Of a DNA stretch of 32,000 nt, positions 5,451 through 32,000 are shown in pieces. Each line of letters begins with the position of its first letter. Position 1 is the first letter of the stretch. Under the pieces are notes generated by a model that was not told the DNA's origin, made no database searches, and saw only the letters and a list, made by a program, of their open reading frames with translations. A program made the position numbers and the translations under genes. Source of the stretch: Deinococcus sp. LM3 (lineage in GTDB: Bacteria; Deinococcota; Deinococci; Deinococcales; Deinococcaceae); the NCBI RefSeq assembly GCF_002017875.1, contig NZ_MUFV01000005.1, positions 75,437-107,436 on the forward strand, given 5' to 3'.

Positions 5451-5771
5451 GGTCTTGGGTGCTGCTTAAGGAAAAGATTGAGTTGACACTAATATTCCTT
5501 AGTGTGAAATTTATCTCCTATGGACGGTCAGTTCGCTGCTGAGCCGGCACCCATCCACCGGACTGGAAACGCCTCACCTGAGATGGGCTCCCTTCCGTCC
5601 CAGTCAGGTTCGCAGTCCGCTCCACGTCCGAATTGCAGGTCCCACGGGGCCGGCTACAGCGTAAGCAGGATCTCAGCAATCCGTACCCCCATCAGGGGTT
5701 TTCCCGAACGAGTGGCATGAGCACTTCACCGGGTGCCGGTCCTCTCTCACCACATTGCCTCCAGATCTTCC

Positions 5772-5802
5772 ATTCGCTGTTCGCGATTCGCGAACAGCGA
5801 AT
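5772..5802. promoter_or_regulatory. 31-bp perfect palindrome (15+1+15), candidate operator of the TA-like pair
   Basis: attcgctgttcgcga t tcgcgaacagcgaat, ending 11 nt before the ATG at 5814. Confidence 0.55.
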
Positions 5803-5813
5803 ATACTGAGACC

Positions 5814-6323
5814 ATGCTCAAACCCCAGGATCTTCTGATTCTCCTCAAGCTCCTTCAGTCGGGGTATACCTCGCACGCGCAGCTTTCAGGAAGCCTGGGC
5901 ATGAGCTCGTCCGAAGTGCACGCCGGACTCAAACGACTCAAGCAGTCCCGACTCGTCAAGAGCGACGTCTCCCCCATCCGGTCAGCCGTCCGTGAGGTTC
6001 TCCGGTACGGTGTCCCCTATTTCCTCCCCGCCGTGCGGGGCGAACTCACCCGCGGCATGCCGACCGCCTACGCCGCGCCACCACTGAACGCCCATATCGC
6101 TCAGGGCAGCGACCCGCCCCCCATCTGGCCCGACCCTGAAGGCACCGTCCGTGGTCAAGCCCTGGCCCCCCTCTACCGCTCGGTGCCCTTCGCCGCCCGT
6201 CAGGACCCAGCACTCTACGAATGGCTCGCGCTGGTCGATGCCCTGCGGAGCGGAAGCACCCGCGAACGCCAGTTGGCCGGCAAGCTTCTGGACGAGCGCC
6301 TGCAGATCCCGGTCGTGTCATGA
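5814..6323 (+). CDS. Winged-helix DNA-binding protein, AbiEi-like antitoxin candidate
   Basis: In-frame ATG at 5814 within track ORF 5733..6323. The N-terminus MLKPQDLLILLKLLQSGYTSHAQLSGSLGMSSSEVHAGLKRLKQSRLV is a MarR/wHTH-like pattern. Its stop overlaps the downstream start (ATGA at 6320-6323). Confidence 0.55.
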   Translation: MLKPQDLLILLKLLQSGYTSHAQLSGSLGMSSSEVHAGLKRLKQSRLVKSDVSPIRSAVREVLRYGVPYFLPAVRGELTRGMPTAYAAPPLNAHIAQGSDPPPIWPDPEGTVRGQALAPLYRSVPFAARQDPALYEWLALVDALRSGSTRERQLAGKLLDERLQIPVVS

Positions 6324-7027
6324 GCAGCGCAGCGAACATTGAGCGGCTCACCGAGACTGTGCGCCGCCTCGGTCCACTCGCGCAGCAGATGGTCTTCGTC
6401 GGCGGCAGTACCACCGCCCTCTTCATCACCGACGCCGCAGCCGCTGACGTGCGCGAAACCCTGGATATCGACGCCATCGTCAAGATCACCCGGGCCGGGT
6501 ACAACCGGTTGACCGAGTCACTGAACGGGCAGGGCTTCTTCGAGGACACGACTGAAGGCGCACCGATCTGCCGGTTCCGCAACGGCGATCTGATCCTCGA
6601 TGTGATGCCAACCGACGAGCAGGTGCTGGGCTTCAGTAACCCCTGGTACCTCCCCGCGATGGAGCACGCCGAGACCCTGAACCTGGCGGACGGTCTCCAG
6701 GTGCGAACCATCACGGCCCCCTATTTCCTCGCTACCAAACTGGTGGCCTTCGAGGGCCGCGGTGAGGGTGAGTACGGCCTCAGCCATGACATCAGCGACG
6801 TCGTCTCTGTCCTTGATGGGCGGCCTGAAGTGGTCGACGAGGTCAGGCAGAGTGACCGTGAGCTCAAGGCGTTTCTGGCTCAGGCGGCCCGCGAACTGCT
6901 GGTGACCCCCGCATTTACGGACACCATCTCCTATCACCTGCTGCCCGACCCGGCGAGTCAAGCCCGGGAAGGGCTGATCTTGAAGCGTCTGGAACTTCTT
7001 GCAGCAGCCGATCAGCAGGATTCCTGA
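6320..7027 (+). CDS. Nucleotidyltransferase-fold protein, AbiEii-like toxin candidate
   Basis: In-frame ATG at 6320 (MSSAANIERL...). The motif FVGGSTTALFITDAAAADVRETLDIDAIV fits the GG...R.T.DiD pattern of AbiEii/DUF1814-type nucleotidyltransferases. Translationally coupled to the wHTH gene. Confidence 0.55.
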   Translation: MSSAANIERLTETVRRLGPLAQQMVFVGGSTTALFITDAAAADVRETLDIDAIVKITRAGYNRLTESLNGQGFFEDTTEGAPICRFRNGDLILDVMPTDEQVLGFSNPWYLPAMEHAETLNLADGLQVRTITAPYFLATKLVAFEGRGEGEYGLSHDISDVVSVLDGRPEVVDEVRQSDRELKAFLAQAARELLVTPAFTDTISYHLLPDPASQAREGLILKRLELLAAADQQDS

Positions 7028-7375: not shown

Positions 7376-8047
7376 ATGATGGCAGGCATGTCAGCCAGAA
7401 TGTCTCCTGTCGTGATCAGCGCCGTCATGAAGAAGGGCGGTGCCGGGAAAACCTCGACCATCGTGCCCCTGGCCAGTTTCGCTGCGCAGTCCGGGGCCCG
7501 CGTGGCCCTGATCGACATGGACAGCACGCCGAGCGCCCATCAGTGGTTCACGGCGGCTGAACTGGGCAGCGAGACGTTCGCCTGTGACCGCATCACGGCG
7601 GACGAGCTCGATCCGCTGCTGCGGGATATCCGGGAGAGCAGCGCCTTTGATTTCGTGTTCATCGACACGCCCCCCGGGGATAAGCACGGCATCGTGCAGG
7701 CCATGAGTGAGAGTGACCTGGTGCTGATGCCCCTGCACATCGGGTCAGGGGACGTACCCCAGTTGGTCGAGACGTACCACCTGATGCGCCTGCCACTGCG
7801 GGCCAATCCGAAGTTGCATCACCTGATCGTCGTGAACCACGCAGGGACGATGCCAGCGGTGACGCGCGACACGATCAGTGCCATCCAGACTGAACTGCCG
7901 GACGCACAGATCGCGGCCGCCACCATTCCGTACAGCAAGCAGTACGCCCTGGCAAAAGGCAACCGCCCGGACCGCGTGAAGTGGTGGCATTACGACAAGT
8001 TGTGGAAGGAGATTCAGACCCTGCTGCCGCAGGAGGTGCCCGCATGA
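7376..8047 (+). CDS. parA: ParA-family partition ATPase
   Basis: Deviant Walker A motif VMKKGGAGKTST, followed by ALIDMDSTP and FVFIDTPPG. Several candidate ATG starts lie between 7376 and 7403. The stop overlaps the next start (ATGA at 8044-8047). Confidence 0.85.
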   Translation: MMAGMSARMSPVVISAVMKKGGAGKTSTIVPLASFAAQSGARVALIDMDSTPSAHQWFTAAELGSETFACDRITADELDPLLRDIRESSAFDFVFIDTPPGDKHGIVQAMSESDLVLMPLHIGSGDVPQLVETYHLMRLPLRANPKLHHLIVVNHAGTMPAVTRDTISAIQTELPDAQIAAATIPYSKQYALAKGNRPDRVKWWHYDKLWKEIQTLLPQEVPA

Positions 8048-8394
8048 GCAGCATCCGCAAGATGATGGGGCAGGCCGAACCGCAACCGGAAACCCCTCCG
8101 CTGCGCACGGCGCCCCAGACACCAGAGCTGAAAGAACAGCCCACACCACCCATCACTGAAGGGCCGCGCCGGTTGAACCTGCCGCCAGTCGCCCCGCCCG
8201 AAGAACGCAAGCCGCTGAGCACCCGCGTGAAACCCAGCTTGAAAAAGGCGCTGGAGGACTACACCAAAGAGATCCGGGACGCGGGGTTCAACGTCACGCA
8301 GGAGATGGTACTGGACGTGCTTCTACGTGAGTTGCGGGACAGTGAGGGGTTACGAGAGAAGGTGGCTGCGGTCCTCGTCGCTGAGCAGAAGTGA
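8044..8394 (+). CDS. Small partition partner / centromere-binding protein candidate (ParG- or ParB-like adaptor)
   Basis: 116 aa from the in-frame ATG at 8044 (MSSIRKMMGQ...). It has a Pro-rich disordered N-terminus and a C-terminal region (KPLSTRVKPSLKKALEDYTKEIRDAG) compatible with a ribbon-helix-helix fold. Coupled to parA. Confidence 0.5.
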   Translation: MSSIRKMMGQAEPQPETPPLRTAPQTPELKEQPTPPITEGPRRLNLPPVAPPEERKPLSTRVKPSLKKALEDYTKEIRDAGFNVTQEMVLDVLLRELRDSEGLREKVAAVLVAEQK

Positions 8395-8490: not shown

Positions 8491-8739
8491 CTACCCGTTT
8501 CCGCGTAACAGATCTTGCATGGATAGCTTAAGTGCAGTAGTCAGTCGCAGGAGAGTTGTGAACTGCGGGTCGTACTGCGCACTTTCGATTTTGCTGATGT
8601 GGCTTCGCGAGAGGTTGGCACGGGCGGCAAGTTCTTCCTGACTGTATCCAGAGTTTTGACGTGCCTGCCGGATCTGAGCCGCCATCCACTCCAACGCCTG
8701 TTGTTCATGGGCTTGGTAGGTTCGAGGTGTGCGGGCCAT
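8491..8739 (-). CDS. XRE-family helix-turn-helix regulator (controller-protein-like)
   Basis: 82 aa. YSQEELAARANLSRSHISKIESAQYDPQFTTLLRLTTAL is a classic Cro/C1 HTH_3 pattern. It is divergent from the TGT-like operon. Confidence 0.85.
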   Translation of the reverse strand: MARTPRTYQAHEQQALEWMAAQIRQARQNSGYSQEELAARANLSRSHISKIESAQYDPQFTTLLRLTTALKLSMQDLLRGNG

Positions 8740-8771
8740 TCCACCTACAGTGCAAGAGTTGATCTGACTGT

Positions 8772-8807
8772 GCCACCTATTATAATATGCATATTATAAT
8801 AGGTGGC
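8772..8807. promoter_or_regulatory. Perfect 36-bp AT-rich palindrome carrying TATAAT boxes on both strands: divergent promoter/operator
   Basis: gccacctattataatatg|catattataataggtggc, with all 18 pairs checked base by base. TATAAT at 8781..8786 and 8795..8800, and their mirror images on the minus strand. It is centred in the 119-bp gap between the XRE start (8739) and the GTG at 8859. Confidence 0.7.
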
Positions 8808-8858
8808 GTGCAGGTGTGACGAATGTTTGGGTAGATCAGGACCAGTCAGGAGGGAAGA

Positions 8859-9827
8859 GTGAAGTATTTTTGCGGCTACACCCCATGGGACTTCCCAATC
8901 GCGCAACTTGACCCCTACGCTCACATGCTCGTCTCGCCGACCACCTATTCGCCAACGTACAGGTACGACTTCCACCCGCCACAGGAGGTCATGCTCGATA
9001 GTGGCGCCTTCCATCACGGTCGGCGTAACACGCATCGTCACCGCCTGCGCACCTTGCATGATCAACTCAAAATTGCCGAACAGTACCCAGGGAGCACGGT
9101 CACTCTTGCCCACAGTGATGTGCTCTTGCGGCCAGAGGTTGATCCACGCCGGAGTATTCATGAAACCCTCGTGAATGCCGAGTGGTTCATGCGGCAGGAC
9201 CTGCCGAGTGGGTACCGACGAATGACTGTCGCTCAAGCACGCACTCCTGACGAGATGTACCTCGTGGTTTCTCAACTGGCTCAATTTGAGCCTGAATTGA
9301 TCGGTATAGGTGGTCTCGCGAATCTCCACCGTACCCACCGCAAACTCCTTCCATTTATGCTCGAAGGAGCGGTGGAGGCCGCCGGCGACCTTCCCCTCCA
9401 CGCACTCGGCGTCACTGCACAGCACATTCTCCAACGGCTACGCATCAACAACATCTACAGTTGCGACTCTGCCACTGCCATCTGGTGCGCCATCTATGGC
9501 AGCGTTGTCTATGCCCGTCCATACCGCCGTTACCGTCTGATCAGCGAGAAATCCAGCAGGCCCGAATCTCCACAGGAAACAGGCTACTACAGCAGTCTGA
9601 CTCGCCCTCTCGCCTGCACATGTCCAGTGTGCCGAACAGTTCCAGAAGAGTTACTAGGCAGTGACTCGCGCGCTAAATACGCCCGTTACATTCACAACTA
9701 CTATCACATCAAGCTTGAGATCGAGGGAGAGGGAGAATGGCAGGCAGTTTACTCATCGGCCGAATACCAGTCCGTTATGACGACCTTTCTCTCCTCCAGG
9801 AGCTCATCGAACAGCACCCAGGCATAA
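8859..9827 (+). CDS. TGT-fold (DpdA-like) transglycosylase, paralog 1
   Basis: GTG start with an AGGAGG SD 5 nt upstream. Motifs MLDSGAFHHG, IGIGGLANL, LHALGVT and YSCDSATA correspond to the two catalytic Asp regions of tRNA-guanine transglycosylases. A Zn-type CTCPVCR...HNYYH motif is also present. The last 91 nt overlap the next gene in another frame. Confidence 0.7.
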   Translation: MKYFCGYTPWDFPIAQLDPYAHMLVSPTTYSPTYRYDFHPPQEVMLDSGAFHHGRRNTHRHRLRTLHDQLKIAEQYPGSTVTLAHSDVLLRPEVDPRRSIHETLVNAEWFMRQDLPSGYRRMTVAQARTPDEMYLVVSQLAQFEPELIGIGGLANLHRTHRKLLPFMLEGAVEAAGDLPLHALGVTAQHILQRLRINNIYSCDSATAIWCAIYGSVVYARPYRRYRLISEKSSRPESPQETGYYSSLTRPLACTCPVCRTVPEELLGSDSRAKYARYIHNYYHIKLEIEGEGEWQAVYSSAEYQSVMTTFLSSRSSSNSTQA

Positions 9828-10525
9828 CGTTTAAAGCACTCAAGGAGACTTTAACGCCACACTGGACGTACTACCTGTCAAGCTCGGCCAGTCTGCTCAA
9901 AGAAACCCTGAGCTTTGGCACAACACTGGGCCTCTTCGCTTCAAGCGCTGAACGGTCATGGGATGACCGCACCTTCAGCACTCCCTATGAATCGAAGCAT
10001 CTTCGTGCCACGATTCTTCATCTCCTGTCCGCGCAATCAGACACCTCCCAGCGGGCCTTTCGTGGAGTTCATGACGAATTGATCGACCAGGGGCATGTCC
10101 ACACGGATATTTCCAGCATCCTCGAATGCATGGAGACTGGGCCCTATGGTCAGGTCTTCCGCTGGAACGATACGAAAGTCAACTTCTGGAGTCAGTTCAT
10201 GCACGACCTGGGTCTGGTCATCCGGCTTCCACCGGAACGGGTGGTCCTGAGTCCGACCAGCTCTCTCCTTCAAGAACTGCTGCCTGCACAGGGCGGCCCC
10301 GTTCGCCCGTTGTTGGAAACGTGGCACCGCGATTATTACGCCGTCTTCACGCGTCTAGGCGAGGTTCACGAAGGACTTGCACGGGCTCTCCTGCGACTGG
10401 AACAACAAGGACACATGACATTCACGTACGCGAGTGACGCCGTCGGCAGTGTGCTGTTATGCGGCCGTCGCATCAGTCACTGGACTCACGCCGCCGCCGG
10501 AGGCACCCATGTGGATTCCCTTTGA
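9737..10525 (+). CDS. Hypothetical protein (262 aa)
   Basis: ATG at 9737 preceded by a purine-rich SD (gagggagagggaga). No motif recognised. Lies in an operon between the TGT-like gene and the P-loop gene. Confidence 0.6.
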   Translation: MAGSLLIGRIPVRYDDLSLLQELIEQHPGITFKALKETLTPHWTYYLSSSASLLKETLSFGTTLGLFASSAERSWDDRTFSTPYESKHLRATILHLLSAQSDTSQRAFRGVHDELIDQGHVHTDISSILECMETGPYGQVFRWNDTKVNFWSQFMHDLGLVIRLPPERVVLSPTSSLLQELLPAQGGPVRPLLETWHRDYYAVFTRLGEVHEGLARALLRLEQQGHMTFTYASDAVGSVLLCGRRISHWTHAAAGGTHVDSL

Positions 10526-13418
10526 TCCTGCCGACGTTGCTCAGGTCTTCACCACCGAATCCCGTCAGAAGCACGAGCGAATCTTCACGCTAACACACAC
10601 AAGCATGAACCGAATTCTCGTCTCGCACAACCGCGTCGGTCTTTCCAATGGCCAGTTTGTCGGTGAGCATGCAGTACTCGATCTGATTCAACAGTCTGCT
10701 CCGCTGGATAGCAATCGCGTCTGGTTCATCGTGGGAGAAACAGGCAGTGGCAAGTCTGAACTCTGCCAGTGGTTGGAGTACCAGTTGCGTGAACGGCACC
10801 TACCCCTGCACATCTCCAGGCGGCAAGCAAATCTCACCGGCATTCTCGATGTGCTGCACACCCATTTACCGTCCGGCCTTCAGGGGCAGACGACTGACCT
10901 GCCGCAGGACGTGTTGACGGATCACCTTCGCCTGCACCTCATGCTACGCGCCCACCGGGAAGGCCGCGGCCTGGGGTACGTCGAGCAGTTGCTGCCCTTT
11001 CTCCCTGACCTCGCCCGGCGGCTCTATCAACCGCTGGCTTCGTTTGAATTGCCACCCCACCTGCCTCCTGCACCCGCAGATGTTCCTTTCACGGCCTGGT
11101 TGTTCAGCGCCGTTCGCGAAGTCTTGGGTCTCCAGTCACTCGAACCCACCCTGCGTGCACTGGCCGAACATACCGCCCAACTCGGGAAACGTCCGGTCCT
11201 TTTGCTGGAAGACATCACCACTCTCGGCTTCTTACGTGACGATCTCCTCGACTACATTTTTGATCTCTCCGCTCCAGGGTTCGACGCGGTCATCGGGCTG
11301 ACCAGCGGTTTTGAAGATACCCACCTTCACCGCGACGGAGACCTTTCAGAGATGGCGTATGTCCGTGACCGTCTCAGTGCCCGGTTCCAGTTATCGCACA
11401 AGAGTGGAGAAACGTTTTTCCTGAACCAACCTCAAGATCTCCATGATCTGGTCCGGCGCTACCTGGGCTGTCTGCCGGCTCAGTCGGGCGGATCTTCGCC
11501 CGCGTTTTCAGGCCTGTACCCGTTTTCACCCACCATGCTCGACCGTCTATACACACATCTGGTCGAAAGTGGTAACCCGCGTCAAACGCCACGGAATCTA
11601 CTCGACGCTGTTATCAAACCTTCCCTGTGTCTGAATGAACCACCCCACGTCACTCTGTTCCGGGCACACCCTTATTTGCGCACGCCCAGCGTTACCTTTT
11701 ACCATCAAGACATTCCACCGGAACTCCAAGGACTGCTGTACTGGCATGGTGAGGTCCGGGACGGAAGTGTTCACGTTCCGGACGATGTGGCGCAGGCATT
11801 CGGTTATGATTCTGTTCCTCCGGTTCCCTGTTTTCCCAATCCCACAGGATCAACGTGGCTCTTCGGAAAGACGGCGGATGATCCAACAGATCTGTGGAAA
11901 GAAGCCATCCGTGAACTGCAAGCCTGGCAATCTGCGGGTGCTCCCTTTCCCAAACGCCAGTATCTCAAGCGCGGGATTGAACGACTTCTCCGGGCCCTGC
12001 TGGATCCGCGCCCTATCCAGCATCCCCGTCTGAATGCGCTCAGCGCAGATCCTTTAGAGTACACGCGCGGAGGCGATCACCTCCCTATTTACTTACCCGA
12101 GAGCGGTGACGTGCGTCCTGAGCATTGGCCGAGCCTGCACTTCCCCCGCACTCTTCCGCCCCAACTGCTTGAAGAATGCCTCACCTATGCGTTCTCCGCC
12201 AATCGCCATGTAGAATGCTTTGCCGATCTGGGACATACGCGACAGGTTCTCGAAGATGTTGTCTCCGATTTCCGGAGTGACGTGCGCGATCAGATCGGAC
12301 GTCTCACCGGACAATCATGGTCGAGGATGGTCTTTGGTCTCTGGTGGCTCTGTCAACATGTCTGCCAGGGCCATCCCCTGCAGATGAACGGCGGGGATGG
12401 CAAACGCGCCCTTTTGCAGTATGATCTCGCCCCAAAAGAACTGCGAACGGCCTGGTCGGATGAGCGTCGCCACCGCGTGTTACACCGCACTCACCAGGAA
12501 CTTCGGGCGAATCGTGATCACTACCGGGGCTTATTTGTGAGCCTCTTCCATCACAGAGACGACCTGATGGACCCCGTGCTCTATGAACAGGAGTGCCGAC
12601 AGTTCGATCCCAGTCTGTTCATGGATACCCTGGCCACGCTTTCACTCTCACGCCTCTCGGCGGCGCCCTACCGGCAACGGGGCAGTAAGCTCTCGTTGAC
12701 GCAACTCCTCCAACCCGCCGTGGAATACGCCGCAGCCCTCAAGGCATACGTCCTTCAAGACGAAGACCGTCTCCAGTGGACGGCCGTGGAACGCAGCCTT
12801 GAACACGCCATTCAACAGGCAGATGAATTGGACCTAGCCTGCAGACGTATTGAGCGTCTGGCTCATCAGGCCGGATGGACCATCACTGCCCCGCCGACCA
12901 GTCACACGTGGCGGTCCGGCGAGTGGGCAGGTGTCCTGCGTCAGTCCCAGCAGGCCAGTCGCGACTTCAAGAACCATCCTCCGATTGTGCAGATCACGGT
13001 GGCGCGCACGTGGCGGGAACGCCTGGAACAAATAGAACCGATCCAGTGGATGAACGCTGTTAAGGTGTTCCGAGACAGCGCTGAACGCATTCACCAGGAG
13101 AGGCACCCCGTTGAACAACTGCCCACACGACAGACGCATCATTCGAGTGACGTTCACCTGAATGATCTGGAAGATCTCGCCAGTACGCTGGCGGCGGCCG
13201 CGGACGCCGCCGACACCTTGCCACAGCATGTTGCCGAGCAGACGGCCCGTTCGATCCGTCGCCTGCAGGCGACGCAGACTCAGAGCATTGAAGCCGTCCT
13301 GGGCCGTCATGGCATTCACGCACCCGTGCAGATGGCGCGGCAGTCACGGGAGGCCAGTCTGGTTCTTCTGAGTGACCTGCTGGAATGCATGGTGGACCTC
13401 ATGGACTGCCCACCGTGA
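10509..13418 (+). CDS. Large P-loop NTPase (about 970 aa) of unknown family
   Basis: ATG at 10509 with a GGAGG SD 5 nt upstream (the track ORF starts earlier, at 10434). Walker A is WFIVGETGSGKSELC and Walker B-like is PVLLLEDITTLG. It has a long helical C-terminal region. It overlaps the upstream gene by 17 nt. Confidence 0.7.
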   Translation: MWIPFDPADVAQVFTTESRQKHERIFTLTHTSMNRILVSHNRVGLSNGQFVGEHAVLDLIQQSAPLDSNRVWFIVGETGSGKSELCQWLEYQLRERHLPLHISRRQANLTGILDVLHTHLPSGLQGQTTDLPQDVLTDHLRLHLMLRAHREGRGLGYVEQLLPFLPDLARRLYQPLASFELPPHLPPAPADVPFTAWLFSAVREVLGLQSLEPTLRALAEHTAQLGKRPVLLLEDITTLGFLRDDLLDYIFDLSAPGFDAVIGLTSGFEDTHLHRDGDLSEMAYVRDRLSARFQLSHKSGETFFLNQPQDLHDLVRRYLGCLPAQSGGSSPAFSGLYPFSPTMLDRLYTHLVESGNPRQTPRNLLDAVIKPSLCLNEPPHVTLFRAHPYLRTPSVTFYHQDIPPELQGLLYWHGEVRDGSVHVPDDVAQAFGYDSVPPVPCFPNPTGSTWLFGKTADDPTDLWKEAIRELQAWQSAGAPFPKRQYLKRGIERLLRALLDPRPIQHPRLNALSADPLEYTRGGDHLPIYLPESGDVRPEHWPSLHFPRTLPPQLLEECLTYAFSANRHVECFADLGHTRQVLEDVVSDFRSDVRDQIGRLTGQSWSRMVFGLWWLCQHVCQGHPLQMNGGDGKRALLQYDLAPKELRTAWSDERRHRVLHRTHQELRANRDHYRGLFVSLFHHRDDLMDPVLYEQECRQFDPSLFMDTLATLSLSRLSAAPYRQRGSKLSLTQLLQPAVEYAAALKAYVLQDEDRLQWTAVERSLEHAIQQADELDLACRRIERLAHQAGWTITAPPTSHTWRSGEWAGVLRQSQQASRDFKNHPPIVQITVARTWRERLEQIEPIQWMNAVKVFRDSAERIHQERHPVEQLPTRQTHHSSDVHLNDLEDLASTLAAAADAADTLPQHVAEQTARSIRRLQATQTQSIEAVLGRHGIHAPVQMARQSREASLVLLSDLLECMVDLMDCPP

Positions 13419-13559: not shown

Positions 13560-15545
13560 TTAATTCAGGAGGCGTTCCATGGGCCGCTCCAGGTTGTCCC
13601 GTCGTTCCCGGGCAGCCTCATAGCGGTCTCGTTTAACGAGGAGGCTTTCATCGCCGGCAAGGATACGGGCCTGCACGTCCTGGAGTGCCCGGAGGTACAT
13701 GTTGATGTTATGAACGGCGCGGCCCATGTTCGCTTCGTTGCCACCGTTGTAGGGACGGCCACTCGGGTCGCGTAATGTTCCACCCTGTGCCCGGGTGTCC
13801 CACCCTTCGGCGCGCATGGCAGAGCACGCAGGACAGTGGCAGGGCGGTAACTCATCGCTTCCAGGAACGTTCTCAACAATCCGGTACTTTTTGAGGAGGT
13901 TGGGGTCTTCCGGGACGTACTGAAGGAAGGATCCGGCCGTGAAGGCAGACATATACATGCTGGAACCGTCAAAGGAGTCAACACCCAGATGTGTGAGCGT
14001 GGCAGCCCATTTGATACTGGAAACCCCCAGGACGTGAATATACAGATCCGGCACCTGGGCCCGGTACTGTAAGGCGTCTTCAACGCACCGGTAAACAAAG
14101 TACGGATCACGACTTGATTTCAGGGCGAGACTGCCCAGGGCGATGTGCCGGTACCCGAGATCCAGGTAATGCTCCATCATTTCGTGCCGTTGCTCGAAGG
14201 ACCCGTGGGTGACGGCCATGAGACGGTGCGCACCGGCGAGGGGCTTCATGGCTCTTGCGAACTGATAGGAGATTTCAATTTTTTCGCGCGCAACCTGCGG
14301 ACTGTCGAGACCGTCAAGGATCATCATATCCGGGGAGACGATAATGTCACGTCCTTCCCGGGCCCCTGCATCCTCAAACAGTTTCATGGTGCCCTCTGGC
14401 GTCAGGGGTCCGTTGCGTTTTTTCAGGATGGGGTATGGCTCTGCCTTGTAACTCCAGGCGCCGCAATCGTAGATATTGCCCTCATCAGTTTGTGGCAAGG
14501 GATCACTGTTAGGGTTGTGATACGCCAGAGAGGTCAAGTACCCCCTGGGATCCGTTTCAATAAAGTTCCAGATGCGTTCCATCTTGGGGGTTGGCAACGG
14601 CGCCCCTGCGTGATCCTGTGTCAGTTTGAGCTTGTCACGGTTGTTAATCACCACTGTGAATCGTGCCCGCGGAGGCACCGCGAGTTCATGCTGGGCTTTC
14701 GGGTAAAACGCTTCACTGCTCAAGTTCAGAGGGTTGAAGCCCAGTCCGGTGCGGTGAATGCTGGGACCTGTGGTGACCGGCATGGGAGGCACTGAAGCTT
14801 CTACCTCAGCCTCTGACATGAGCGTTGGTGCCGTGCGGGCCGCCTGCCAGGTTTCCAGATAGGTGATGGCGCTCTGAGGATCGGCGTGCCAATCGTGCAG
14901 CACTTCTGGATGTTCTGCGACGGCCCGCGCGAGTTGATGAAACAAGAAGCCTTTCAGGCCAACCATACCGTATCCGAAGCGACGTGCATCCTTATTGACC
15001 AGAGGGAGAACAGCCTGCTTGGCGGCATGCTCGGGAAGAATGGCGGCACTCCCGCCACTGGCCAGAAAAATGAAGCTTTGATCTGGACGACTCTGCAGTG
15101 GGAGAAGGGCCGACTTCAGATAATTCTCGCCGAGCAGGAAAATGACAATATCATAAGACTTTATTCTTGCATTCAGGGCCTCGTGGATGCCCAGCTGCTT
15201 ACTCCAGTCTAAGACTTCCCGGCTTTTTAATTCGTTGAAAGACGTTTCGTAGGGGGCAATAAATTTATACTGATCGATTAAGCCATAACCGGCTGAGATG
15301 ATTTCCAGCCGACTGACAACACCTTTGATCTTCGAGAGAATATCAAAAGCTCGGGAGACCTGTTGGTGCTGCGCACCCGTGTATAAGCGCTTGGCTGAAG
15401 TTCGGTACTCCGCCAACTCTTGCTCACGAGCCCGAAGGTGATCTCCTCCCTTGCGGAAATCCTCTATCACAAGTTGATTTGGCGGTTTGTATAGCTTTGC
15501 GCCCGTACAAGAACTGATGACTAACAAGCTTGGGTACTTGGGCAT
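13560..15545 (-). CDS. Fusion protein: N-terminal YaaA/DUF328- or DUF6884-like domain plus C-terminal TGT-fold (DpdA-like) domain, paralog 2
   Basis: 661 aa. The N-terminal pattern is VISSCTGAKL...AKRLYTGAQH...IISAGYGLIDQYKFIAPYETSF. The C-terminal motifs are IYDCGAWS, IALGSLALK, IHVLGVSS, GVDSFDGSSMY and CHCPACS...HNINMY. The ATG at 15545 lies 2 nt after the queC stop (15548). Confidence 0.7.
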   Translation of the reverse strand: MPKYPSLLVISSCTGAKLYKPPNQLVIEDFRKGGDHLRAREQELAEYRTSAKRLYTGAQHQQVSRAFDILSKIKGVVSRLEIISAGYGLIDQYKFIAPYETSFNELKSREVLDWSKQLGIHEALNARIKSYDIVIFLLGENYLKSALLPLQSRPDQSFIFLASGGSAAILPEHAAKQAVLPLVNKDARRFGYGMVGLKGFLFHQLARAVAEHPEVLHDWHADPQSAITYLETWQAARTAPTLMSEAEVEASVPPMPVTTGPSIHRTGLGFNPLNLSSEAFYPKAQHELAVPPRARFTVVINNRDKLKLTQDHAGAPLPTPKMERIWNFIETDPRGYLTSLAYHNPNSDPLPQTDEGNIYDCGAWSYKAEPYPILKKRNGPLTPEGTMKLFEDAGAREGRDIIVSPDMMILDGLDSPQVAREKIEISYQFARAMKPLAGAHRLMAVTHGSFEQRHEMMEHYLDLGYRHIALGSLALKSSRDPYFVYRCVEDALQYRAQVPDLYIHVLGVSSIKWAATLTHLGVDSFDGSSMYMSAFTAGSFLQYVPEDPNLLKKYRIVENVPGSDELPPCHCPACSAMRAEGWDTRAQGGTLRDPSGRPYNGGNEANMGRAVHNINMYLRALQDVQARILAGDESLLVKRDRYEAARERRDNLERPMERLLN

Positions 15546-18779: not shown

Positions 18780-19673
18780 TCACCGCTGCAAGGTGCGGGT
18801 GGTGAGCGTGCTGAAGCGGGCAGTGGGGAGTGGGAGGGACGCGCCGATGGCCGCCGCGAGGTTGCACAGGGCCAGGTGAACGCGTTCGTGCGGGGTGAGG
18901 TGGGCGTGCCGGACCTGCGGGGCCGAGTAGAGACGGCCGTCCGCGGCGTACTTCACGTAGGAACTGGAATCCACGCTGTCCACGCCGAGCCGCGAGACCC
19001 GCCCGACGTGGTCCGGGTGGCCGATCCCGAAGGCGTGGATGGGCAGGTCACCAGCTGCGGCGCGGACAGCCCGGATCACGTCGTCCACCATGTCTGGTTG
19101 GGACATGCGTAGGACGAGCCCCCCGATGGCGACTCCTTCGAATCCAGCCTCCCGGTACTCCTGCGCGAGCTCCGCGGCGGCCTGCGCGTCCCAGCCCTGC
19201 ACGACCCCGTACAGGGGCAGGTCGGTGCGGCGGCGGTTGTGCAGGGCCCACAGCGCGTTGGCGCGCGTCAGGGCGTGATAGCGCCGGGCGTCGCGGGTGG
19301 GCAGACCGGGGGGAATGAGCAGGTCCAGGGTGAAGCCGACGTCCGCGACGCGTTCCTGCAGTTCCAGGACGCTGCTGGGTGTTATGCGCCGACCCTGGCA
19401 GTCGATCACGCCGAGTCCCGCGCGGGTGCGGGTCACGGTGGCGGCCGTGAAGACACTGGCGAACCCGCCGGAGTCCACGAGCAACGGCACGCTCAGGTCC
19501 GGCGCTTCCCGCGCGTCTTGCAGGAAGAACGCGCTGACCATGACCGCGGGTGCGAGCCGGGGCAGGTAGGGGCGGATCAGGTCGTCGAGGGGGTACTTCT
19601 CGCCGAAGGTCGTGACGGGCACGAACGCGGGGAAGTGCAGGGGGCCTTTGCGAGTGTTCAGGGTGCGGGTCAT
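18780..19673 (-). CDS. dpdA: TGT-fold DNA/RNA transglycosylase, DpdA-like, paralog 3 (no Zn cysteine cluster)
   Basis: 297 aa. Motifs LLVDSGGFASV, GVAIGGLV, IHAFGIGHPD and GVDSVDSSSY. It contains only two Cys residues, so there is no CxCxxC motif. It heads the que/yhhQ gene string. Confidence 0.65.
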   Translation of the reverse strand: MTRTLNTRKGPLHFPAFVPVTTFGEKYPLDDLIRPYLPRLAPAVMVSAFFLQDAREAPDLSVPLLVDSGGFASVFTAATVTRTRAGLGVIDCQGRRITPSSVLELQERVADVGFTLDLLIPPGLPTRDARRYHALTRANALWALHNRRRTDLPLYGVVQGWDAQAAAELAQEYREAGFEGVAIGGLVLRMSQPDMVDDVIRAVRAAAGDLPIHAFGIGHPDHVGRVSRLGVDSVDSSSYVKYAADGRLYSAPQVRHAHLTPHERVHLALCNLAAAIGASLPLPTARFSTLTTRTLQR

Positions 19674-29575: not shown

Positions 29576-30280
29576 TTATTGCAGGCGAACCGTGAAGGCT
29601 GGCAGGAACCCGTGCTCCTGAAGCCAAGCCCACACCTCTGGGGTGAGGGCCGCGAGGTTGGCCTGGCCTTGAACCACGGCCTGTAAAAACGTCACCACGC
29701 CGGGCGGCAGGTGGGTGCCCACCAGGTCGGCTCCCAACCGGTCATACTCTGTAGCCAAGCCTTTGGCTTTGTGCGCCTGTTCCGCTGTGACCGGGAAAGT
29801 GCGCCGGAGTTGATCGTGCAGTTGGTACACCTGCCGCAGGGCGCTCGCCGCCGGCGCCAGGCCCGCCTGGCGCTCAAATACCGCCAGGACTGGCGCCGGT
29901 ACCGGCGGTTCGATGCTGGCGAGGTAGGTCTCCCAGGCCTCGCGGGCCGCGAAGGTCAAGTCGTCACTGGCCTTCTTGACGTTCCGCAGGGCCACCGAAA
30001 AATCGTTCTTAATCAGCGTTCCTGCGTCGACCTGCGCGCCTCTATGAACGAAAGCCACATTCCGCAACGCCGCGTCAACACTGGCTGGTAACGCCTCATT
30101 CGCCACCAGGCCGGCGGCCCGGAGCGTGCTCCACGCGAGTGAAGCGCCCTGCACCTGCCCCTTGACCGCCTGGAGTTGCTCCTGACGCGTCGTGTATTGC
30201 CGGATGCTCTCCTGCACGTCCGTGAGCTTGTGCAGGTCTTCGGCACTTTCCTTGAGCGCCTGGGCACGTTCCAACATCAT
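29576..30280 (-). CDS. Hypothetical protein (234 aa)
   Basis: Its ATG overlaps the stop of the upstream gene (ATGA at 30277-30280). It is helical and Ala/Leu-rich, with no motif recognised. Confidence 0.55.
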   Translation of the reverse strand: MMLERAQALKESAEDLHKLTDVQESIRQYTTRQEQLQAVKGQVQGASLAWSTLRAAGLVANEALPASVDAALRNVAFVHRGAQVDAGTLIKNDFSVALRNVKKASDDLTFAAREAWETYLASIEPPVPAPVLAVFERQAGLAPAASALRQVYQLHDQLRRTFPVTAEQAHKAKGLATEYDRLGADLVGTHLPPGVVTFLQAVVQGQANLAALTPEVWAWLQEHGFLPAFTVRLQ

Positions 30281-32000
30281 GCGGGTTCTCCTTGGGTTTG
30301 AACGCCCGACAAGGTCTCTTCGATGGACCGCAGGTCTTTCAATAAGATCTGCGCCACTTGAACCGCGCTGGCGTCCGGGGTGGCGATGGACGCGCGCTGA
30401 CGGGCGTACCGCAGGCTGTCATCCAGGACCTGGTTCAACTGCTTGACCACCTCTTCACTGCGCGCCGCGTCAGCCCAGGCAAAACTGGCCGCCGTGGTAA
30501 GGCGCCGCTCCAGGTCGGCGGCGTCGACGAGGCGCCGCGCGGCCTTGAGCAGACTGAGCAGGGGCAGGCGGTTAAACTGGCGCAGCAGTTGTGCCACCCC
30601 TTCTGGCGCCATGCTGCGCGGCAGTTGCAGCACGCCCGCTTCGCCCGCCGCGCGGAACGCTTCGTTCAAGGCAACAGCCGTCTCACTCAGTTGGTCGGCG
30701 CTGCCCAGGATCGATAGCACCTCCTGTTGCCAGCGGTCCGCTTCTTGCTGCGCCGAGACGCTGGCCGCCCGCCAGGCTTCAAACAGAGTGTTCCGGTCCT
30801 CGGCCAGGCCCAGCCGGTCATGCTCGGGAGGCTGCGCCCGAACAGCCGCCTGTTTTGCCGTGCTTTCAATCTGTTGTAGCAGCAGGGCCGCGTTGACCAG
30901 CCGCGCGGCGCCCCCTTTGCGGACGCCAGCAAATACCAGCAGTTGCCGGGCGGCTTTCGGATGCAGTCGGCGCACCTGTTCAAGTTGACGGCGCCAATCC
31001 AATGGCGCTTCAGCCGGCACTTCCGGCACAGTCTGCAGCATCGCGCCTATGACCCTCGGGTCTCGGTCTCCCACTTTGATGCGGCCAAGCGCGACGGCGC
31101 TCCAGTACAGCGTTTCGACGGCCACTGGCAGCACCGACGGGCGCGGACCAGTGGGGGACAATTCCACCCGGACGTACTGCGTCCACAGTTCCACTGCTTC
31201 CCGGAATCGCCACGCTGCATCGGGAATCTCGCTCGGCCACCGTCCCGTCTCCTTGAAGGTGTAATACGCACCCAGCGCCACCGCCACGTCCACCGGGCTC
31301 TGGCCTGGCAGGGGCAGGTTGAGCCGAACCGCTTCACGGCCCAGATTGAAGTTGTTCGTCTGCCCTTCGAAATAGATGCTCTCGGCAGACCACACACCAT
31401 CGTCTTTCAGCGCAACCTCATGCAGGTTCTCCGCTTCGAAAACGGCAAAATCACTGATTGCCTCATGAGCGAGTCGGCGCAGCTCCCGGGTGTGGGTTTG
31501 CGTAAGCGGCCGTCCACTCGCCCAGTTCTGCAGCGCCTGCAACAACGCAGGTGTGGCCGCTTTCTTTCGCTTTTTGTCGTCCGGGTCATCGGGCGTTCCT
31601 ATAAGCGGGCCGTCAAGCAGTGGCGGCGCCTCCCCTACCTGGGGAATCTGGAATGCGGCGTGCAGGCCTTCGGGTAGATTCTGCAACCGGGGCGGCACAG
31701 GACCCCACAGCCGCATCACCGCTTCGATACGGTCGGCTTCCTCGGCGTCGATTTGCAACTCTTCCAGGCGGGCTTTGTCGCCCAGAGGCAGTGACGCTAC
31801 GGTGACAGCCTTGCCATAGGTGTCTTGCACAGCCGGTGAAGGGAAGGCCGCATCTGGCAGTCGCTCCTGGGCGTCGCGCAACACATCACGCATGCCGCGC
31901 AGGAGGCCGCGGGGATTGAAGCCTTCCGGATTTTCGTGGTCCCCCACGATGTCAATCAGCCGGTTGTTAAACGGATACAGGCCTACCGGTCCCTCAGTTC
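30277..32000 (-). CDS. Hypothetical large protein; the 5' end runs off the right window edge
   Basis: The track starts it at the GTG at 31947. However, the same frame stays open to base 32000 (...TEGPVGLYPFNNRLIDIVGDHENPEGF...), so the true start is probably outside the window. No catalytic motif lies in the visible 574 codons. Confidence 0.6.
   Translation of the reverse strand, partial: TEGPVGLYPFNNRLIDIVGDHENPEGFNPRGLLRGMRDVLRDAQERLPDAAFPSPAVQDTYGKAVTVASLPLGDKARLEELQIDAEEADRIEAVMRLWGPVPPRLQNLPEGLHAAFQIPQVGEAPPLLDGPLIGTPDDPDDKKRKKAATPALLQALQNWASGRPLTQTHTRELRRLAHEAISDFAVFEAENLHEVALKDDGVWSAESIYFEGQTNNFNLGREAVRLNLPLPGQSPVDVAVALGAYYTFKETGRWPSEIPDAAWRFREAVELWTQYVRVELSPTGPRPSVLPVAVETLYWSAVALGRIKVGDRDPRVIGAMLQTVPEVPAEAPLDWRRQLEQVRRLHPKAARQLLVFAGVRKGGAARLVNAALLLQQIESTAKQAAVRAQPPEHDRLGLAEDRNTLFEAWRAASVSAQQEADRWQQEVLSILGSADQLSETAVALNEAFRAAGEAGVLQLPRSMAPEGVAQLLRQFNRLPLLSLLKAARRLVDAADLERRLTTAASFAWADAARSEEVVKQLNQVLDDSLRYARQRASIATPDASAVQVAQILLKDLRSIEETLSGVQTQGEPA

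Follow-up and report, generated by a model that had tools for sequence, protein, structure and literature searches.

A conserved AT-rich double box between an XRE regulator gene and a divergent DpdA-like cassette in Deinococcus is a probable operator and promoter core

How DNA modification and restriction islands establish themselves safely in new hosts is a question for which a short intergenic locus of Deinococcus sp. LM3 offers a test system. The window analyzed here, a stretch of 32,000 nucleotides (assembly GCF_002017875.1, contig NZ_MUFV01000005.1, positions 75,437 to 107,436 of the forward strand), carries a monocistronic gene for an 82-aa regulator of the XRE/HTH_3 type on the minus strand (8491..8739) and, divergently oriented on the plus strand, a three-gene Dpd-like cassette that opens with a DpdA/TGT-like gene. 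The 119-bp gap between the two genes contains a perfect 36-bp palindrome, and the locus thus raises the question of what this palindrome does. Literature searches that paired dpdA with "regulator" and dpdA with "Deinococcus" returned no title or abstract on the control of a Dpd system.

A preliminary description of this DNA had reported a perfect inverted repeat of two 18-nt arms without spacer (GCCACCTATTATAATATG/CATATTATAATAGGTGGC) at 8772..8807, and both the sequence and shuffled controls confirm this strandless feature. It is the longest perfect palindrome of the window, and the longest arm found in 200 shuffled windows was 12 nt. The runner-up in the window has arms of only 9 nt (13257-13274) and lies near the 3' end of the DpdH-like gene. 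The most AT-rich 24-mer of the window, which has 61% GC overall, lies inside the palindrome and is the sole site with 22 of 24 consecutive positions occupied by A or T. The 15-mer and 10-mer sub-motifs of the palindrome have no second copy in the window, against chance expectations of 0.07 and 0.02 matches, respectively. The reported presence of TATAAT on both strands was likewise borne out, with two copies on the plus strand (8781-8786 and 8795-8800) and two on the minus strand (8784-8779 and 8798-8793). The description of the palindrome as almost wholly TATAAT-like stands for its inner 24 bp, to which both the AT-richness and the conservation in relatives are confined, but not for the outer 6+6 bp (GCCACC/GGTGGC), which are GC-rich, unconserved and specific to this window.

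The inner 24 bp consist of two copies of the same 10-bp box. The regulator-proximal box (TATTATAATA, 8778..8787) is self-symmetric with a 3+4+3 structure (TAT-TATA-ATA) and is the proposed first operator site as well as the shared -10 core. A 4-bp spacer, TGCA (8788..8791), holds the overall dyad axis, and the regulator-distal box, again TATTATAATA (8792..8801), is the proposed second operator site, covering the position where cassette transcription is predicted to start. From center to center 14 bp separate the boxes, and the whole TATTATAATA-TGCA-TATTATAATA arrangement, conserved in eight loci, lies 38 nt upstream of the regulator ATG. Since each box carries TATAAT on both strands, it contains the overlapping opposite-strand -10 elements that define symmetric bidirectional promoters. 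The heptamer CCACCTA occurs twice in direct orientation, flanking the proximal box (8773-8779) and over the ribosome-binding and start region of the regulator gene (8741-8747); its reverse complement is found at 8800-8806, and the upstream copy at 8741-8747 is not conserved in other loci.

The TGT-like protein encoded by the first cassette gene has only 11 homologue clusters among 5.8 billion proteins. The comparison of related loci covered nine of these 11 clusters, together with one locus identified in a genome scan (L015) and one reached through a regulator homologue (L246). A regulator orthologue divergent from the cassette is present in nine loci, and in eight of them the intergenic gap contains TATTATAATA-N4-TATTATAATA; the ninth, L246, has a single box, CATTATAATA, which corresponds to the regulator-proximal one. 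The box is thus found at every locus with the regulator (9/9) and at none of the cassette loci without it (0/4), and a scan of 129 kb of these islands revealed no box outside the regulator/cassette gap. In a box-anchored alignment the 24-bp core is almost invariant, together with an ACC on the regulator side and a G on the other side (8775-8802 in the window, the only conserved part of the palindrome), whereas the flanks are scrambled. The proximal box is invariant or near-invariant in all nine loci and the distal box is conserved in eight. The spacer reads TGCA in four of the eight double-box loci and TGTA in L003, and is variable in the remaining three. The core is kept in these eight loci even though protein identity is only 44-59% for the regulator and 54-74% for the TGT-like protein. 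The AT-rich palindrome is therefore a real, conserved regulatory element, far beyond what chance would produce.

Most relatives cannot pair the outer six positions of the 36-bp palindrome, and the flanks are scrambled; as judged from the alignment, the conserved and functional unit is therefore the 24-bp double box and not the longer repeat. Seven of the twelve core pairs never vary. Since the boxes are themselves palindromic, the pair can be read as a direct or as an inverted repeat, and L004, with TATTAGAATA...TATTCTAATA, shows an inverted pair. In both L004 and L005, mirrored double changes leave the overall dyad intact.

The regulator that accompanies the box consists of one helix-turn-helix (HTH) domain, matched by the Pfam model HTH_3 (PF01381) over residues 23-77 with 57 bits against a cut-off of 23, preceded by a short N-terminal arm and ending just after the HTH. 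The arm begins with MARxPRxY in all nine orthologues, which supports the ATG at 8739 and hence the 82-aa start; the NCBI annotation in Deinococcus sp. 6YEL10 starts the protein at an internal Met and gives it only 64 aa, and a word-indexed protein search with the regulator returned the self match alone, in the form of this 64-aa annotation. Being rich in arginine, the arm might make contacts in the AT-rich minor groove. On the same strand, no credible gene lies downstream of the regulator gene.

The regulator family is tiny, with three full-length relatives among 1.84 billion cluster representatives, and confined to the loci described above. At the overall identity of 44-59% just given, the recognition helix L(S/N)RSHISK(I/L/V)E is nearly invariant. 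A genome scan with the recognition-helix peptide recovered mostly unrelated HTH genes of Leptospira and Aminicenantes, where the box motif is absent. In Leptospira spp. (L016-L020 and L026), the distant HTH genes with the helix peptide SRSHISK(I/L)E have a different AT-rich inverted repeat upstream (ATTAATAC...GTATTAAT), beside TTGACA. DNA-pattern scans of viral and metagenome sequences found an RSHISK-type regulator at none of the at least 218 loci listed, which have a median GC content of 29% and are dominated by AT-rich genomes.

A search of the regulator family profile against solved structures placed the restriction-modification controller (C) proteins C.BclI (2.3e-13) and C.AhdI (1.9e-11) first and second, with SinR close behind (1.6e-10), followed by C.Esp1396I (1.2e-7) and the N-terminal domain of DdrO (1.4e-6). 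The PADLOC Control_protein models match the regulator down to 7.8e-15, with generic HTH_VI models scoring about equally. In a single-sequence search the Xre-family regulator of ICEBs1 ranked first, and the AlphaFold model built from the single sequence was of low confidence (pLDDT 68.6). On the profile ranking, the regulator is a generic XRE domain whose nearest characterized relatives may be, by a small margin, the controller proteins of restriction-modification systems.

The position of the boxes relative to predicted promoters suggests how such a protein could act. Promoters were called with an Escherichia coli-type consensus. On the plus strand, the predicted cassette promoter (8759..8786) combines a -35 element, TTGATC (8759-8764), with a 16-bp spacer and a -10 element, TATAAT (8781-8786), inside the proximal box. 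It matches the consensus at 10 of 12 positions, and its predicted start, near 8793, falls within the distal box. Six of the nine loci have a TTGACA-like -35 at 16-18 bp from the TATAAT of the proximal box: TTGATC in the window, TTGACA in L013 and L003, TCGACA in L004, TTGACC in L005 and TTGATG in L246. With its -10 in the proximal box and its predicted start in the distal box, the cassette promoter should be shut off by bound regulator. L246 shows that the distal box is dispensable for this promoter layout, and its conservation elsewhere consequently needs another cause, such as protein binding.

In Deinococcus deserti, 94% of start sites are preceded by a TATAAT-like -10, there is no general -35, and 60% of mRNAs are leaderless (PMC4007540). 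Most of the regulator genes compared here have no Shine-Dalgarno sequence. A second conserved block, CA(C/G)nCT, is found between the proximal box and the regulator gene (CACTGT at 8747..8752 on the minus strand of the window, 25 nt beyond the proximal box and 7 nt short of the regulator ATG). Its C, A and T are invariant in 9/9 loci. Its distance from the proximal box is exactly 25 nt in all of them, which argues that the block is functionally coupled to the box, and its distance from the regulator ATG is 6, 7 or 8 nt depending on the locus, which rules out a coding explanation. We give roughly a third of the weight to the reading that CA(C/G)nCT, with A at position 2 and T at position 6, could be a weak -10 for a leaderless regulator mRNA. 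Relative to the corresponding start, the proximal box would be centered at about -43.5 and the distal one at about -57.5, positions compatible with activation only. A leaderless regulator promoter with a canonical TAnnnT -10 was rejected, as no such hexamer precedes the ATG and CA(C/G)nCT is the only candidate. A conserved -35 serving a box-driven regulator promoter was also rejected, since neither box has one.

Taken together, we consider it probable that the palindrome unites a promoter core with the operator of a small, controller-protein-like XRE regulator. The proximal box would supply the -10 of a strong rightward promoter for the DpdA-like, DpdG-like and DpdH-like genes, the distal box would cover the predicted start site of this promoter, and the regulator would repress the cassette by competing with RNA polymerase for both. 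This reading of competition with the polymerase leans on sequence anatomy, conservation, co-occurrence and protein similarity, from which we infer binding, stoichiometry, start sites and the sign of autoregulation. The preliminary description had envisaged a dimeric HTH protein on the 36-bp site. The element is indeed conserved and tied to the XRE gene, but two dimers, one per box and related by the central dyad, are likelier than one, because the boxes lie 14 bp apart, because conservation spans about 14 bp on each side of the dyad, beyond the reach of one dimer, and because one box suffices in L246. It had also been proposed that a dimeric HTH protein would occlude both divergent promoters. 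The cassette half of that proposal fits a cassette -10 that lies in a box conserved together with the XRE gene; the use of the mirrored -10s by the regulator gene is uncertain, and a separate weak promoter, giving a leaderless mRNA, may serve that gene instead.

The regulator itself may be produced from two sources. The in-box TATAAT hexamers on the regulator strand would give a leadered, poorly translated and self-repressed mRNA, and a weak promoter with CA(C/G)nCT as its -10 would give a leaderless one. Regulator bound at about -43.5 could activate the weak leaderless promoter or free it from occlusion. On entry of the island into a regulator-free cell, the cassette would be on first and would be turned down once the regulator accumulates, a burst followed by shut-off. 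The preliminary description had invoked the logic of C proteins, which time expression after entry into a new host. Restriction genes under C proteins are activated with a delay, and the cassette logic predicted here would not have this effect. A more elaborate version, in which the operator itself is the consensus -10 core of a bidirectional promoter and the regulator silences the cassette, by competing with sigma factor for the same bases, while activating its own weak leaderless promoter from about -43.5, would amount to a bistable switch of the lambda or C-protein kind, with a timed burst of the 7-deazaguanine cassette in a new Deinococcus host followed by self-sustaining silencing. We put this forward tentatively, as a more doubtful proposal than the operator and promoter core on which it builds.

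Several observations weigh against an operator for the 82-aa protein or against parts of the scheme built on it. The nine loci are mutually related, and the counts given above are not independent. The statistics for dyad covariation are borderline, the observed values being reached by 21-29 of 500 shuffles. SinR follows the C proteins closely in the profile search. No regulator-side -35 is conserved across the nine loci for either box, and CA(C/G)nCT makes a poor -10, which agrees with the consensus in its A and final T alone and does not account for the conserved C residues. Lastly, an identical TATTATAATA-N4-TATTATAATA is found on a metagenome contig of 59% GC (Ga0172363_10049401; L189, 2924-2947), 16 nt upstream of an unrelated 65-aa XRE gene. 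The protein encoded there has 29% identity to the regulator and a different recognition helix, LSLNTIVKIE, and its gene heads a TolC-like/HlyD-like efflux pair. L189 suggests that part of the box conservation may reflect promoter function and not specific recognition by the 82-aa protein, and that the double box may represent a promoter/operator design of wider use.

The L189 case also bears on two other explanations of the boxes. According to one, the palindrome is a compact bidirectional promoter in which the boxes are doubled -10s for both divergent genes, and the XRE protein acts elsewhere or on another target. Each box does have TATAAT on both strands, symmetric -10s are known to give rise to divergent transcription and show enrichment in DNA acquired by horizontal transfer, Deinococcus promoters depend mainly on the -10, and the double box of L189 precedes an unrelated XRE gene. 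However, a -10 needs little beyond TAnnnT, yet all ten positions of both boxes are conserved along with the spacer and the ACC flank, and the distal box, dispensable for the layout in L246, is conserved elsewhere. Cassette loci that lack the regulator also need promoters but have no box, and an autoregulated XRE gene beside a palindrome is the usual operator arrangement. We therefore regard a promoter devoid of operator function as unlikely. Somewhat less likely still is the idea that the boxes are the operator of some other factor encoded by the host, for example a nucleoid protein or a second repressor, with the XRE protein recognizing, for instance, CA(C/G)nCT. The strict association of the box with the regulator gene across plasmid, chromosome and metagenome contexts argues otherwise, as do the tiny regulator family confined to these loci and a recognition helix that is near-invariant, as are the boxes. 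What speaks for another factor is that the tie between the 82-aa protein and these bases is indirect, that a second conserved block exists, and that the L189 box adjoins a different regulator.

A role in DNA structure, as an AT-rich cruciform or hairpin that senses supercoiling or as a site of recombination, nicking or replication, would account for a perfect 36-bp palindrome, for its folding energy as single-stranded DNA (-15.8 kcal/mol, z = -7.2) and for the two symmetric double changes that keep pairing. It is very improbable given that the outer six pairs are unpaired in most relatives, that L246 has one box and no long palindrome, and that the invariance of seven of the twelve core pairs points to conservation of sequence and not of pairing; moreover, the element does not lie at a mobile-element boundary and is always flanked by the starts of the same two genes. 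Many partition sites are palindromes, and a ParA gene (7376-8047) with a small downstream gene lies within 400 bp, on the far side of the regulator gene, which brought a parS-type centromere into consideration. This candidate was rejected as hardly credible, because on the D. taeanensis plasmid about 20 kb separate the ParA homologue from the box, which remains with the regulator/TGT-like pair, and because the other box-bearing loci have queuosine-precursor or unrelated genes, and not ParA, beside the regulator. A structured RNA, whether terminator, attenuator or small RNA hairpin, was rejected with comparable firmness. The palindrome would form an 18-bp hairpin if fully transcribed, but both flanking genes point outward and the predicted starts lie inside it, there is no T-tract or terminator-like site at the palindrome, Rfam gave no significant match (a spurious microRNA hit only), and the predicted 5' UTR (untranslated region) folds no better than shuffled sequence.

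The cassette that the boxes would control begins with the 322-aa DpdA/TGT-like gene (8859..9827, plus strand; weak DpdA matches), which is preceded by a GGAGGG ribosome-binding site (8849-8854), and continues with a DpdG-like and a DpdH-like gene, the latter with a P-loop (9737..13418, plus strand), tightly packed or overlapping as in all related loci. The order of the three genes is conserved in L001-L007, L013 and L246, and every gene of the cassette is preceded by a Shine-Dalgarno sequence, at 5-9 nt from its start. The DpdH-like open reading frame (10434-10525 region) probably starts at an internal ATG near 10509 (MWIPFDP...), which would leave a 17-nt overlap with the DpdG-like gene, equal to that in L004 and L013. 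The DpdG-like open reading frame, called from 9737, shares 90 nt with the TGT-like gene, and this call too is probably overlong. The only solved structure matched by the TGT-like family profile is 7UI4, the DNA-guanine transglycosylase DpdA (5e-7), and the family keeps the invariant CDS aspartate motif and the CxCxxC zinc motif, on which account the 322-aa protein is plausibly an active enzyme. The NCBIfam equivalog cut-offs are missed by DpdA (24 bits against 200), DpdG (37 against 80) and DpdH (41 against 450), and by these scores the cassette is only distantly Dpd-like.

The rest of the island includes a convergent fusion of DUF6884 (DpdC-like) and TGT, QueC, QueE, a queuosine-precursor transporter and a third TGT paralogue, followed further along by a NERD/UvrD helicase and by DpdK, DpdJ, DpdI and DpdH homologues; all of these, like the cassette proteins, score under the equivalog cut-offs. 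A single island thus carries three TGT-superfamily paralogues, namely the divergent DpdA-like protein (8859-9827), the DUF6884(DpdC-like)-TGT fusion (13560-15545) and a shorter TGT (18780-19673), as well as two DpdH-like genes (10434-13418 and 30277-31947). The window proteins match unclassified Deinococcus and Deinococcus sp. 6YEL10, and the window DNA matches Deinococcus plasmids. On the other side of the regulator gene (7376-8394), the ParA gene is followed by a gene for a 137-aa protein of unknown function (7981-8394), and at 5733-7027 a winged-HTH gene overlaps a gene that weakly resembles AbiEii-like nucleotidyltransferases; the two may form an AbiE-type toxin-antitoxin pair. Maintenance functions of a plasmid kind adjoin the defense island. 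In L013 (D. taeanensis plasmid p_TS293_6), a WYL-domain gene (10719-11690) directly follows the three-gene cassette. WYL regulators are known from other defense islands, and by analogy this gene may provide a second layer of control in some hosts.

Should the bistable switch exist, Dpd-type DNA modification/restriction islands would have their first described regulatory circuit; should the boxes be purely promoters, the element would be ordinary. The locus joins controller-protein switches, symmetric bidirectional promoters and leaderless expression in Deinococcus, and an 82-aa protein with a 24-bp site makes a very small and well-delimited test system. The regulator/box pair could also become a compact repressible promoter for Deinococcus engineering.

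Among known systems, the probable operator and promoter core invites comparison with symmetric bidirectional promoters, as described by Warman, Grainger and colleagues, in which opposite-strand -10s coincide within an AT-rich, pseudo-symmetric stretch separating divergent genes of horizontally acquired DNA, whose divergent start sites are 7-25 bp apart, and whose control "has hardly been studied". The coincidence of opposite-strand -10s between divergent genes is shared. Unlike in those promoters, the -10 is here duplicated at a fixed 14-bp spacing, conserved beyond promoter need, and travels with a dedicated regulator. The same genus provides another parallel in DdrO, an XRE-family Deinococcus repressor that binds the RDRM palindrome at or near start sites and whose C-terminal dimerization domain carries the IrrE cleavage site. 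The likeness lies in the repressor family, the genus and a palindrome at or near start sites; however, DdrO has two domains, whereas the 82-aa regulator is an HTH only, has no adjacent protease partner, and reaches DdrO in the profile search well below the C proteins. A DdrO-type, IrrE-controlled regulator was rejected, the C-terminal domain being absent from the 82-aa protein.

The lambda cI/OR region (PRM/PR) shares the broader logic. There, an XRE-fold repressor binds adjacent symmetric operators between divergent promoters and represses the strong outward one, and its own gene is expressed as a leaderless mRNA from a weak promoter that is activated from a site centered near -42. Lambda also has three operators, a C-terminal oligomerization and cleavage domain, and the antagonist Cro, none of which is seen at this locus.

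The closest comparison is with the C proteins of restriction-modification systems (C.PvuII, C.AhdI, C.BclI and C.Esp1396I), which, like the regulator, are small single-domain HTH proteins (about 70-100 aa, against 82 aa here). Their operators follow the C-box consensus GACT(N3)AGTC(N4)GACT(N3)AGTC, better seen as two trinucleotide-TATA-trinucleotide sites, and span 35 bp, with two dimers 15 bp apart, a central dyad and a conserved TGTA spacer; a weak promoter that works without the C protein has its -10 within the boxes, and the mRNA made from the C-activated promoter is leaderless (PMC2504287, PMC3488213, PMC2175313). The locus shares this geometry in its TAT-TATA-ATA sites, 4-bp TG(C/T)A spacer and overall dyad, with sites 14 bp apart against 15 bp from center to center in C.Esp1396I and a length of 36 bp against 35 bp. 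In both cases the operator is interlaced with promoter hexamers and set in a mobile island of the DNA modification/restriction type, and a leaderless regulator mRNA may be made here too. The C-box sequence itself is absent, with no GACT/AGTC half-boxes and a resemblance limited to the central TATA and the TG(C/T)A spacer. Gene order also differs, since the C gene lies upstream of the endonuclease gene and is co-transcribed with it, whereas the regulator gene is monocistronic and divergent from its target, which is a DpdA-like cassette and not a Type II nuclease. Moreover, C operators lie beside a -35, and the boxes lie on the -10 and start site of the target, implying pure repression of the latter; both boxes are also upstream of the -35 position of the candidate regulator promoter, which leaves no OR-like self-repressing site of the kind present in C systems.

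The C-protein logic invoked in the preliminary description therefore survives in the best solved-structure matches and in the C-box-like geometry, and fails on the missing GACT/AGTC half-boxes, on the lack of co-transcription with a nuclease and on sites that lie over the -10 and start. The match closest to the predicted logic of the cassette promoter is C.Esp1396I at the promoter of its methyltransferase gene (OM), where the site overlaps the start of a constitutive modification-gene promoter, giving early expression and then shut-down. OM is a single dimer site serving a separate convergent gene, whereas the two sites of this locus are shared with the upstream region of the regulator's own gene. 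The controller-protein analogy is thus apt for the protein and for the geometry of its operator, and the arrangement of the genes is different from that of C systems.

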